Of a stretch of DNA of 64,000 nt, positions 6,558 to 45,360 are shown piece after piece. Within the stretch, counting starts at the first letter, position 1. Each line of letters opens with the position of its first letter. The position numbers and the translations under genes are program-made. A model generated the notes under the pieces. That model was given only the letters and a program-made list of their open reading frames with translations, was not told where the DNA came from and did not search any database. Origin of the DNA: Octopus vulgaris (lineage: Eukaryota); contig OX597836.1 of assembly GCA_951406725.2 (NCBI GenBank), forward strand, positions 18,662,001 through 18,726,000. The letters run 5' to 3'.

Positions 6558-6757
6558 ATGATAGATCGTTAGCCACTACACGCATTATTTTCTCTCCTTC
6601 TTACTCTCTTTGTTTTTTTCTGTGTCCCTTTCTGTAGAAGAGCGTAGGCTCGAAACGTAAAAGACTTTTTCTATTCCTGAGCGTTATACTAATACATCTG
6701 TTTGTTTTGTACACCACCTGTTTTCGTCTTTTGTTGTTTTTTTTCGTAAATTCTCCC
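6558..6757 (+). mobile_element. Family E: ~200-bp hammerhead-bearing element (Penelope-like pLTR or retrozyme-like), next to (TA)n
   Basis: Same ~200-bp unit occurs 8 times in the window; contains cttt-CTGTAGA-a-gagc gtag gctc-GAA-ACGT-A-aaag at 6628-6663. Confidence 0.75.
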
Positions 6758-7189
6758 AATACATATATAATACGACGAGCTTCTTTCAGTTTCTATGTAT
6801 GAGTATTTTCTATGTTTGTGTATTTTCTGTGTATGTTTGCATGTATGTAAGATACATATAGATATGAAAATAAACAGATCAACATGCAGAAAGATAGGTA
6901 CACAGGTTATGTGAACAGACAAGCACACATACGCGAATGGAGACTGAAACACATGACCATATATATACATACACACTTTACTCCACACAATGACACATAT
7001 GGAGACACGGGTCCACACATATAGAGATGCACATCCATAATACAAACATGGTACATAGTTGCAAAACACACACACAAACACACAGACATGCATACACAAG
7101 GAGACAGAGGTGCATACATATACAAACACACGCTCACACACACATACATAGAAAATACACAAACACAGACATGCAAGCACATGAATATA

Positions 7190-7740
7190 CAGAATACATA
7201 CATACAGATGCACACACATACATACATATATACATATGCATACACACACATGTATACATACACACCCATGCATACATACATACATACATACATACATACA
7301 TACATGCATACATACATACATACATACAGATGCACACGCATACATATATACTTATGCATACACACACATGTATACATACACACCCATGCATACATACATA
7401 CATACATACATACACACCCATGCATACATGCATACATAAATACATACATACATACATGCATACATACATACATAGATACATACATACATACATACAGATG
7501 CACACGCATACATATATACTTATGCATACACACACATGTATACATACACACCCATGCATACATACATACATACATACATACATACATACACACCCATGCA
7601 TACATGCATGCATACATACATACATACATACATACAGATGCACACACATACATATATACTTATGCATACACACACATGTATACATACACACCAATGCATA
7701 CATACATACGCACATAAATGCATACGTACATGCATGCATG
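7190..7740. repeat. Higher-order minisatellite built from (ATAC)n/(CA)n
   Basis: Unit cagatgcacac.catacatatatac.tatgcatacacacacatgtatacatacacacc recurs at ~7205, 7327, 7495, 7635. Confidence 0.85.
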
Positions 7741-7869
7741 CATAGGCACACACACACACACACACACTGACCCACACACATGCGCACAAACAAACAAAAA
7801 GGAACGCAGTGTAAATAACGGACAGAGTCAAGACAAATCGTTACATGCTCTGATCTTCAATTTTTACAA

Positions 7870-9300
7870 ATGTCAATGTAATTCATAATTACTTTGTTGT
7901 CGATCTGAAGAATTATACTAAAAGGGTTACTGATATTAATAACATGTCAGTGGAGGCGCAATGGCTCAGTGGTTAGGGCAGCGGACTCGCGGTCATAAGA
8001 TCGCGGTTTCGATTCCCAGACCGGGCATTGTGAGTGTTTATTGAGCGAAAACACCTAAAGCTCCATGAGGCTCCGGCAGAGGATGGTGGTGATCCCTGCT
8101 GTACTCTTTCACCACAACTTTCTCTCACTCTTACTTCCTGTTTCTGTTGTACCTGTATTTCAAAAGGGCCGGCCTTGTCACTCTCTGTGTCACGCTGAAT
8201 ATCCCCGAGAACTACGTTTAGGGTACACGTGTCTGTGGAGTGCTCAGCCACTTACACGTTAATTTCACGCGAGCAGGCTGTTCCGTTGATCGGATCAACC
8301 GGAACCCTCGTCGTCGTAACCGACGGAGTGCTTCCTCCAGTAACATGTTCAGCTGATATAGGCTTGGAATTTAGTCAAAAGAAATGTTCATATTTGGTTA
8401 TAGAACTAGGAAAGTCAGTCCCCCAAACACAAAACCTGTACATCAATGGTCTCTCTGTCTCCTCCGTTCCGCAAAAAGAATGTTACAAGTACCTAGGCAT
8501 AGACGAAAATGTTTCATATGAAGGCATTGTGAATAAAGATAGAGTGACCCGAGAATATTACACCAGACTTAGGAAAATATGGCACTCGGAACTCTCCTCT
8601 TACAACAAAACGATATCCCACGATGCATTTGCAATACCAGTGCTGGTCCCAACATTTGGGATGCTTGATTGGTCTGTAAAGGAAATCAACTTCATAGATA
8701 TCAAAATCCGCAAAATCCCAACAACAACTGGGAACTTCCACAGAAACAGTGATGTTGACAGACTCTACCTAAGAAGAAATGGAGGTGGTAGAAGCCTGAG
8801 ATGAGTGCAGACGGCCTTCGAATGTCGTATGGGCTCACTCAGGCTGCATCTGCTAAACAACAGCTGCAAAAATACATATATTAATGCAGTGCTGAAAAGT
8901 GTTTGGGACAGAGGGGCAAAGTTATGTACCATCATAAAGCTTTGCTGTCCTGCAGATATAAATATCTCTTTGAAAATCAAAGAAAAAGCGGGTATCTATG
9001 GACAACTGTTTCGAAACCTCCAGCTTCTATATCCAGACTATGAATTCATATTCTTACCAATAATAATTGGAACATTAGGCTTTGTTAGTAAATGCTTAAA
9101 GGAGAATCTGGATAAACTGGGATTTTCATATGAGAAATTGACCGGCTAATTCGTACATTACAAGTCCAATCTGTGAGTGGAACAGTAAAAATATGCAAGA
9201 CTTTTCTCAAGTTCCAAATGTCTGTATTAACTACATCCCATGGATGGAGCCTTGTATCTTTGTTGGAAACCGGCACCCTCAGTAGAAGATTTGTAATAAT
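7870..9300 (+). mobile_element. Decayed R4/Dong-clade (RLE-type) non-LTR retrotransposon: RT C-terminus plus restriction-like endonuclease, internally deleted
   Basis: HNYFVVDLK (degenerate YxDD region, ~7885), SADIGLEF..KC, YKYLGI, RKIWHSELSSYNK, HRNSDVDRLYLRRNGGGR, then CPADINI..KEK..Y..L and LPIIIGTLG; stops and frameshifts; CCHC knuckle region missing. Confidence 0.85.
7951..8340 (+). mobile_element. SINE family A (tRNA-derived), full length, inserted in the LINE RT
   Basis: A box tggctcagtgg, B box gtttcgattcc; TSD taacatgtcag / taacatgttcag (7940-7950, 8341-8352). Confidence 0.92.
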
Positions 9301-9311
9301 TAAAAAATAGA

Positions 9312-9690
9312 GGAGTGGCTGTCTGGTAAGTGGCTTGCTTACCAACCACATGGTTCCATGTTCAGTCCCACTGCGTGGCACCTTGGGCAAGTGTCTTCTA
9401 CTATAGCCTCGGGCCGACCAAACCCTTGTGAGTGGATTTGGTATACGGAAACTGAAAGAAGCCCGTCGTATATATATATATATATATTTGTGTATGTTTG
9501 TGTGTCTATGTTTGTCCCCCTAGCATTGCTTGACAACCGATGCTGGTGTGTTTATGTCCCCGCGGTTCGGCAAAAGAGACCGATAGAATAAGTACTGGGC
9601 TTACAAAGAATAAGTCCCGGGGTCGAGTTGCTCGACTAAAGGTGGTGCCCCAGCATGGCCGCAGTCAACTGACTGAAACAAATAAAAGAG
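9312..9690 (+). mobile_element. SINE family B (tRNA head, CORE-like ccttgggcaagt, internal TA/TG microsatellite, taaaagag tail)
   Basis: Full-length copy flanked by taaaaaataga duplication (9301-9311, 9691-9701). Confidence 0.92.
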
Positions 9691-43980: not shown

Positions 43981-44180
43981 ATTTCTTTACTACCCACAAG
44001 GGGCTAAACACAGAGGGGACAAACAAGGACGGACAAACGAATTAAGTCGATTATATCGACCCCAGTGCGTAACTGGTTCGACCCCGAAAGGATGAAAGGC
44101 AAAGTCGACCTCGGCGGAATTTGAACTCAAAACGTAACGGCAGACGAAATACTGCTAAGCATTTCTGCCAGCTCGCCGCC
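43981..44180 (-). mobile_element. SINE family D, inverted relative to the 43389 copy
   Basis: atttctttactacccacaagggg...ctgccagctcgccgcc. Confidence 0.9.
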
Positions 44181-44247
44181 TTTGTACGATCATATTCCGT
44201 AACACGTTGCATTCTGCCTTATATATAAAAAATAAGTTTTCGCCTTG

Positions 44248-44650
44248 TGGTTGTGTGGTAAGTAGCTTGTTTACCAACCACATGGTTCCGGGTTCAGTCC
44301 CACTGCGTGCCACCTTGGGCAAGTGTCTTTTACTATAGCCTCGGGCCGACCAAAGCCTTGTGAGTGGATTTGGTATACAGAAACTGAAAGAAGCCCGTCG
44401 TATATATGTATATATATATATATATGCCTGTGTGTGTTTGTGTGTCTGTGTTTGTCCCCCTAGCATTGCTTGACAACCGATGCTGGTGTGTTTATGTCCC
44501 CGTAACTTAGCGGTTCGGCAAAAGAGACCGATAGAATAAGTACTGGGCTTACAAAGAATAAGTCCCGGGCTCGAGTTGCTCGATCAAAAGCGGTGCTCCA
44601 GCATGGCCGCAGTCAAATGACTGAAACAAGTAATAGAGTAATAGAGTAAT
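44248..44650 (+). mobile_element. SINE family B, full length
   Basis: Alignment to other B copies; (taatagag)n tail. Confidence 0.92.
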
Positions 44651-44659
44651 ATATAATGA

Positions 44660-44946
44660 AAACGAATGACCAAAGGGTTGCACATAAAAGGTTCCCTCCC
44701 AGGAACAAATCCAGGCACGGTTGCTTGTTAAAAACCAACGGTCGTCCATCCATGCCAGTCGCCCCTCTCCACCTATGCTGTCCAAGGAAAAAGGCCGACA
44801 CAGCTTCGCTACAAGTGAGTAAACTGGGACAACGTGAAACAAAGCGTCTAACACAAGAACACAACACACAGTACGGTTCGGGAATCGAACTGGCAATCTC
44901 TCGATTATAAACCCTACACTCTGACCACTGAGCCATGCGCCTACAC
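44660..44946 (-). mobile_element. tRNA/CORE-type SINE with a third, distinct 3' tail
   Basis: Head and CORE-like body resemble 4720-4848; tail 44660-44810 unrelated to the A or B tails. Confidence 0.7.
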
Positions 44947-45165
44947 TATAAAGAAATACATATAAAAGATTCATACATATACATATGGACATATGTATAC
45001 ATACACACGCGCGCGCACACACACATGTACACATATACATACATATATAATATATATAATATATACATATATATATATATATATATGTATATATATATAT
45101 ATATATATATATATATATATATATATATATATATATATATATATATATATATATATATATATATA

Positions 45166-45360
45166 GTTCGTTAGATACTACATACATTTTTAGATAGATC
45201 TCCTTGTTTCTCTCTTTGTTTTTTCTGTGTCCCTTTCTGTAGAAGAGCGTAGGCTTGAAACGTAAAAGACTTTTTCTATTCCTGAGCGTTATACTAATAC
45301 ATCTGTTTGTTTTGTACACCACCAGTCTTCGTCTTTTGTTTTTTTCTTTCGTAAACTCTC
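45166..45360 (+). mobile_element. Family E hammerhead-bearing element within (TA)n
   Basis: cctttctgtagaagagcgtaggcttgaaacgtaaaagac (stem II closes with G-U). Confidence 0.75.

Follow-up and report, generated by a model that had tools for sequence, protein, structure and literature searches.

The closest described relatives of the motif studied here are the minimal hammerhead ribozymes (min-HHRs) in the pseudo-long terminal repeats (pLTRs) of Penelope-like retrotransposons. The published descriptor for these ribozymes requires the core CUGANGA, and all 56 aligned representatives carry A at position 6 (A6) (Cervera and De la Pena 2014, PMC4209133). We analysed a 64,000-nucleotide stretch of the Octopus vulgaris genome (contig OX597836.1, positions 18,662,001 to 18,726,000; hereafter the window) that contains eight hammerhead motifs of this kind in which position 6 is U (U6). 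They share with the Penelope min-HHRs the type I layout, a U-rich 5' side, a short stem I, an extra base between positions 9 and 10.1, the G10.1-C11.1 pair, a palindromic ACGU replacing stem III, a place in both pLTRs and a predominance of solo truncated copies. The difference is U6, the core variant of that report being a compensatory U3-A8. Since A6 was required, the published descriptor could not have found the U6 family.

Substitutions in this part of the core have been described in other settings. A natural A6C hammerhead showed low but detectable activity in a report that also cites a viroid remaining infectious with U4C (Perreault 2011, PMC3088659), and another study found that A6C cleaved at close to the normal rate in Mn2+ and very slowly in Mg2+ (Naghdi 2020, PMC7151607). 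The A6C hammerhead of phage Bcep176, slow in Mg2+, is likewise a natural substitution at core position 6, but it is a C at one phage locus, has a normal stem III and has been assayed, whereas the octopus variant is a U in more than 16,000 copies with intact young elements and is known from sequence. No natural A6U hammerhead was found in the papers searched; Lunse, Weinberg and Breaker (RNA Biol 14:1499, cited in PMC6765202) may list position-6 variants. U6 thus appears to be a previously unreported core variant, real and well supported, in a known motif type and a known element type, with putative activity.

A preliminary description of the window had claimed eight hammerhead copies with U at position 6 in every one, and both claims held. 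Motifs were present at all eight sites, five on the forward strand and three on the reverse (the latter unstated in the description), with the pattern CTGT-N-GA-A-GAGC-GTAG-GCTC-GAAACGT-A-AAAG and U6 in 8 of 8; position 7 was A in five copies, T in two and C in one. A BLAST search of the window with one copy recovered the identical eight and none additional. Each motif lies in a unit of about 200 bases with a variable 5' end and a fixed 3' end that runs into (TA)n. The window holds solo pLTRs only, with no pieces of the host element's open reading frame (ORF). Rfam gave no match at E<=10 for positions 6570-6760 and no hammerhead family among the 150 listed of 508 whole-window matches. Three single-copy changes, C11.1 to U in two copies and C15.2 to U in a third, are transitions at CpG sites and likely reflect decay after insertion, not covariation; the stem II changes that had been offered as G-U compatible support are of this type. 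The seven exact motif matches of the 64-kb window represent a density some 18 times that of the genome as a whole, and only 19 further flank matches occur in the 400 kb on either side.

Fixation of U6 extends across the 2.8-Gb, microsatellite-rich genome. With positions 6 and 7 left free, the 27-base motif matches exactly at 16,899 genomic sites and its reversed pattern at none; the motif is therefore not a chance occurrence. Only 196 of these matches carry A6 and 393 carry C6; the remaining 96.5% are U plus G, with G6 in 1 of the first 100 matches. Among departures from U, transitions outnumber transversions two to one, so the A6 and C6 minority fits decay from U after insertion. Selection of copies by their flanks alone gave the same picture: three such sets contained U6 in 72 of 76 copies (C6 in 4, A6 in none), and a flank-only profile run over 464 kb around the window found 27 matches, with U6 in all 24 that reach the motif. 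When 158 pLTR copies were placed in a tree, the subfamilies came out as a ladder, and in most of them the copies picked for A6 are scattered tips. Four A6 copies whose flanks are old had raised the possibility of an older A6 subfamily within the lineage, which was rejected: the flank-chosen old set was U6 in 23 of 26 and C6 in 3 (4 of 30 loci, namely the query and three without a usable motif, having been dropped), and the A6 copies did not cluster. A slight A6 excess remains, with A6 in 7, C6 in 11, G6 in 1 and U6 in 81 of the first 100 of 892, against one T-to-A change at position 7.

Apart from position 6, the motif fits the hammerhead class throughout. Six of the seven core positions C3-U4-G5-A6-N7-G8-A9 agree, as do the extra base after A9, the G10.1-C11.1 pair, stem II and G12-A13-A14. 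At the palindromic 15.1-16.1 segment and NUH cut site, every one of the eight subfamilies has ACGU and then A or U. Stem I, of three to five pairs in the class, is CUUU/AAAG here and GUUU/AAAY in a sister lineage, with two-sided changes in 4 of 4 pairs over 15 representatives. These representatives were hand-picked from the U6 lineage, sister lineages, a second family and nine metagenome relatives, and 95.2% of their 165 cells pair, with two-sided changes at 9 of 11 pairs; none of 500 shuffles matched the score, and slid controls paired at 27-47%. True stem covariation exists only between families. Both lineages conserve a CCYGAGCG motif 3' of the hammerhead (window 6676-6683 and equivalents), for which the 3' strand of stem II is a possible pairing partner. 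Further downstream, a TCTTCGTC is complementary to the A6-C7 core and a GAGC could compete for stem II; longer pieces, when folded, showed no consistent structure.

The host element was identified from longer copies, which run upstream into an endonuclease reading frame. A search with this frame returned 150 best matches at 98-100% identity and without stops, many of them in frames of more than 1000 codons. Each of the 10 long loci retrieved carries the motif twice in direct orientation, about 4.5 kb apart and with U6 both times, so that the hammerhead sits in both pLTRs of the full element; in 8 of 10 an unbroken frame of more than 1100 codons lies between the two motifs. The protein has a reverse transcriptase (RT) with a DKG motif, followed by a C-terminal GIY-YIG endonuclease whose score is just below the Pfam cut-off; a CX2-5CxxC linker and a CCHH motif were read from the translation and resemble published Neptune rows. 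The eight motifs are 5'-truncated pLTRs of a Neptune-type Penelope-like retrotransposon, of which full-length copies with an intact RT-GIY-YIG ORF exist. The Neptune- or Nematis-type assignment follows the definitions of Craig 2021 (PMC8557442) and is drawn from these features, the endonuclease tree covering unnamed relatives. With such elements, as defined there, the octopus element shares the RT with DKG, the linker, the C-terminal GIY-YIG with CCHH, pLTRs in partial tandem and a (TA)n microsatellite target; no difference was found save the hammerhead core. The other candidate, a non-LTR retrozyme made of tandem short non-coding hammerhead units, was rejected because the copies are dispersed ends of a coding element, the sole tandem in the window being one two-unit partial tandem. 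No relative was found among viral contigs.

In tandems, the two pLTRs end differently: the upstream one reads on through TATATAT into the 5' leader, and the downstream one passes into genomic (TA)n. Reverse transcription therefore likely begins at this internal site, about 100 bases 3' of the cut site. At such a start, RNA from the continuing upstream pLTR (L090:3206-3222 and nine other long loci) could pair with the nicked (TA)n target. A four-codon upstream ORF (ATG-NNN-NNN-CGY-TAG/TGA) at the 5' end of the pLTR is kept through all eight subfamilies; at the same site the sister lineage has ATG followed directly by TGA, TAA or TAG. In both lineages these ORFs are preceded by TCAKTY, which we take to be initiator-like, and many solo copies start right there.

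The direction of the change could be read from relatives. A generic A6 descriptor gave 11,115 matches against 80 for its control, mostly in a sister lineage with identical stem II and layout. The sister endonuclease is 57% identical and adjoins the U6 clade in the endonuclease tree (ultrafast bootstrap 97-98). At 80 metagenome loci of near relatives, searched with position 6 left free, 14 motifs were found, 12 with A6, one with G6 and one with U6. Since the nearest sister and 12 of the 14 metagenome motifs carry A6, A6 is ancestral and U6 derived. One metagenome relative with an apparently intact ORF (L437:2789-2828, +) combines U3-A8 with U6; it is a single copy and could reflect decay.

Successive subfamilies indicate what has been kept since. 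The oldest set diverges from the column majority by 11.6% on average and the youngest by 0.7%. Across the eight subfamilies, change in the motif is confined to 2 of 36 columns, compared with 66 of 151 columns in the flanks (Fisher p=5e-6). For these sets, 1 of 29 loci was dropped from S2 and 6 of 29 from S4 (3'-truncated), and two were moved from S4 to S3. The two changing columns are position 7, which reads T, T, C, G, A, C, T, T through the series (five changes), and position 17, which changes three times between A and U and is never G; loop II is invariant throughout. Position 7, said earlier to vary freely among copies, is instead diagnostic of subfamily. Because only positions 7 and 17, which the hammerhead core leaves free, have changed, selection on the hammerhead pattern itself is indicated, and the comparison points to selection with U6 in place.

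An overlapping signal could in principle explain both the conservation and the U, be it a splice acceptor after a pyrimidine tract, a downstream promoter element or the removal of an upstream AUG from CUGAUGA. A long pyrimidine tract does lie upstream of the motif, copies with A at N7 read YAG, the oldest subfamily has U7, where A6 would spell AUG, and an intron of Drosophila Penelope ends at the hammerhead (PMC4209133). Yet the conserved block matches the hammerhead boundaries with positions 7 and 17 free, stems covary between families, U6 is kept in subfamilies where A6 makes no AUG, and no joint was seen at the site in four contig sets, itself a weak test. We regard such a signal as very improbable.

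Two further observations bear on how the U6 hammerhead works. Folding predictions gave a G5-C15.2 pairing probability of 0.53-0.99 for natural U6 copies and 0.01-0.10 for natural A6 copies, and in the common subfamily states they made the closed monomer more stable than the open form by 0.4-2.6 kcal/mol. In two sets found by the 3' flank, copies starting at the cut site numbered 0 of 42 (43 matches minus one junk match) and 0 of 29, so the copied template was whole or re-ligated at that site. All copies that contain the motif must likewise have been reverse-transcribed across it. Of 24 sequencing runs, 20 contain the DNA, all as contigs and from five organisms, and none is on record as RNA. 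Neither an end pile-up nor a joint at the motif appeared in four of these contig sets, a weak test. The contig-set differences listed, from which 87 rows are absent, include positions 7 and 17 and not 6; they were not used as evidence.

The reading that we favour, and consider somewhat better than even, is that of a slowed, probably protein-assisted dimeric ribozyme with U6. U6, derived and lineage-fixed, would have turned the hammerhead into a slow ribozyme that needs a partner molecule to cut and probably also the assistance of the element's protein. The rate would fall through loss of the A6 contacts, known from published structural work, in the CUGA turn; in addition, U4-G5-U6 (plus U7 where present) could pair with the ACGU palindrome, giving a closed monomer that competes with dimer formation. 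Slow cutting would be favoured because the template must be whole (or re-ligated) at the site during copying, and residual cutting would still release or circularise unit-length RNA. A comparable described case is the Poseidon hammerhead of Anolis (PAc), which cuts only with the element protein and whose main template in vitro is uncut RNA (Frangione 2024, PMC11167929). It too is a pLTR hammerhead upstream of an internal start of reverse transcription; unlike the octopus one, it has canonical A6, belongs to another clade and starts at a site without target homology, whereas here the TATATAT of the upstream pLTR matches the (TA)n target. The preliminary description had left a choice between an active variant and an attenuated ribozyme, with the host pLTR unidentified; the attenuated option is the better supported, and A6U likely slows rather than abolishes self-cutting.

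Several points weigh against this reading. That U6 has stayed constant is not significant by itself, since 85 of the 151 flank columns are unchanged as well; the choice of copies by motif in S3 and S5-S8 biases the constraint test toward conservation (S1, S2 and S4 are free of such choice), and two subfamily sets are small (4 and 6 copies). Among sister-lineage copies, too, some of them canonical, none begins at the cut site (0 of 18), which means that this test cannot tell U6 and A6 apart. The youngest C4 branch of the sister lineage changes H17 to C and adds a U-U mismatch in stem I, the mismatch resembling a step of gradual decay. In one ribozyme, A6C lowered activity in Mg2+ by about five orders of magnitude (PMC7151607), and in pairwise mutagenesis of another hammerhead all single CUGA-turn changes were low in activity (Roberts 2023, PMC9901934); since such changes are costly, U6 together with the closed monomer may leave no useful activity. 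Poseidon insertion in vitro did not need the ribozyme (PMC11167929), and Naiads spread without canonical hammerheads (PMC8557442).

Much of this evidence would also suit a hammerhead that no longer cuts, whose fold is retained because the element's protein binds or dimerises there and in which U6 marks the loss of catalysis. The low activity of CUGA-turn mutants, the closed monomer predicted for U6, the lack of copies starting at the cut site, the unimpaired in vitro insertion of a Poseidon element with catalytic mutants and the non-canonical turns in three high-copy families of the genome all favour it. Against a dead fold, G5, G8, A9, G12, A13, A14 and the H17 rule have stayed constant lineage-wide while 44% of flank columns changed, and the fixed changes hit positions with published residual activity, not the catalytic G8 or G12. 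We judge this alternative rather unlikely.

At the other extreme, U6 could be almost neutral and leave the core fully functional, with protein, tertiary contacts or the choice of metal ion compensating for the change. The near-normal rates of A6C in Mn2+ would fit, loop II invariance may reflect a tertiary contact, and U6 has arisen at least twice in the genome and once in a metagenome relative. However, all 56 published representatives have A6 (under a descriptor that demanded it), as do 12 of 14 relatives found with the position free; had the site been neutral, reversion or a further step to C or G might have been expected, given the five changes at position 7, and the predicted closed monomer opposes activity. 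Full, neutral activity therefore seems improbable.

Recurrence of turn variants in this genome gives the slowed-ribozyme reading a possible wider frame. Searching for U6 motifs with another stem II brought up a second, unrelated family in which U6 is likewise fixed (46 of 50 exact matches), with a 6-pair stem I, an AUAU palindrome, H17=C and a (TAA)n target; no Penelope ORF was found within 1.5 kb of its copies. One of them, L490, is a partial tandem abutting an RT fragment of another non-LTR type, presumably R4/Dong-like. The sister lineage has fixed U4C, counted by eye in 76 of the first 100 of 10,731 matches and located at the derived end of the sister tree. We tentatively suggest, as a possibility well short of even, that Penelope-like elements are selected to detune their own hammerheads: three successful families in one genome would have independently fixed CUGA-turn changes (A6U twice, U4C once), the A6U lineage would adjust its rate through positions 7 and 17, and the protein would gate cutting until the RNA is copied.

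Coordinates of the hammerheads and of several repeat features are collected in Table 1. Besides the hammerheads, the window holds two adjacent open frames (8199-9146, +) that by eye resemble part of a further non-LTR reverse transcriptase-endonuclease ORF, and two other dispersed, SINE-like (short interspersed element-like) repeat families of about 390-410 bases whose copies are 85-96% alike.

Table 1. Hammerhead motifs and other repeat features, in window coordinates unless a locus (L) is named.
Feature	Position	Strand	C3	Context
Minimal type I hammerhead, U6 A7, H17=A	6628..6663	+	6632	Predicted cut after 6659; solo pLTR ~6558-6757 ending in (TA)n
Hammerhead motif, U6 C7	16981..17016	+	16985	Solo pLTR ~16918-17112, (TA)n flanks
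Hammerhead motif, U6 A7, C15.2 to U decay	20443..20478	-	20474	Solo pLTR ~20568-20350
Hammerhead motif, U6 U7	22196..22231	-	22227	Solo pLTR ~22303-22098
Hammerhead motif, U6 A7	24462..24497	+	24466	First unit (~24397-24589) of partial tandem, spacing 247 bases
Hammerhead motif, U6 A7, C11.1 to U decay	24709..24744	+	24713	Second unit (~24590-24833) of partial tandem
Hammerhead motif, U6 U7	36627..36662	-	36658	Truncated pLTR ~36687-36534
Hammerhead motif, U6 A7, C11.1 to U decay	45233..45268	+	45237	Solo pLTR ~45165-45361
Decayed sister-lineage Penelope hammerhead, TCC loop, A6	50278..50304	-		Outside the eight of the preliminary description
Four-codon upstream ORF	6558-6572, 16923-16937, 24407-24421, 24641-24655; L090:3006-3020			
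Second U6 family	L339, L348-L377, e.g. L349:1495-1537	+		
Sister U4C lineage	L458-L487			
First SINE-like family	7947-8335, 25625-26006, 47256-47642			
Second SINE-like family	9311-9702, 32038-32456, 44247-44655, 48225-48640, 55811-56215			

The U6 family is of interest for its scale, for having been retained so long under apparent selection, and because turn variants have become fixed repeatedly in a single genome. Intact young U6 elements, a sister lineage with canonical A6 as well as C4, natural A6 single copies and a dated ladder of subfamilies together form a natural experiment. If U6 cuts, the list of tolerated hammerhead cores would grow, and surveys restricted to CUGANGA would undercount by more than half here (at least 16,000 U6 and roughly 8,000 C4 against 11,115 A6 matches); should U6 fail to cut, the fold would be expected to serve some second function. 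Should Penelope-like elements indeed detune their hammerheads, standard CUGANGA searches would miss an entire class. What the hammerhead does for Penelope-like elements is a question that the natural variants of this genome make directly testable.

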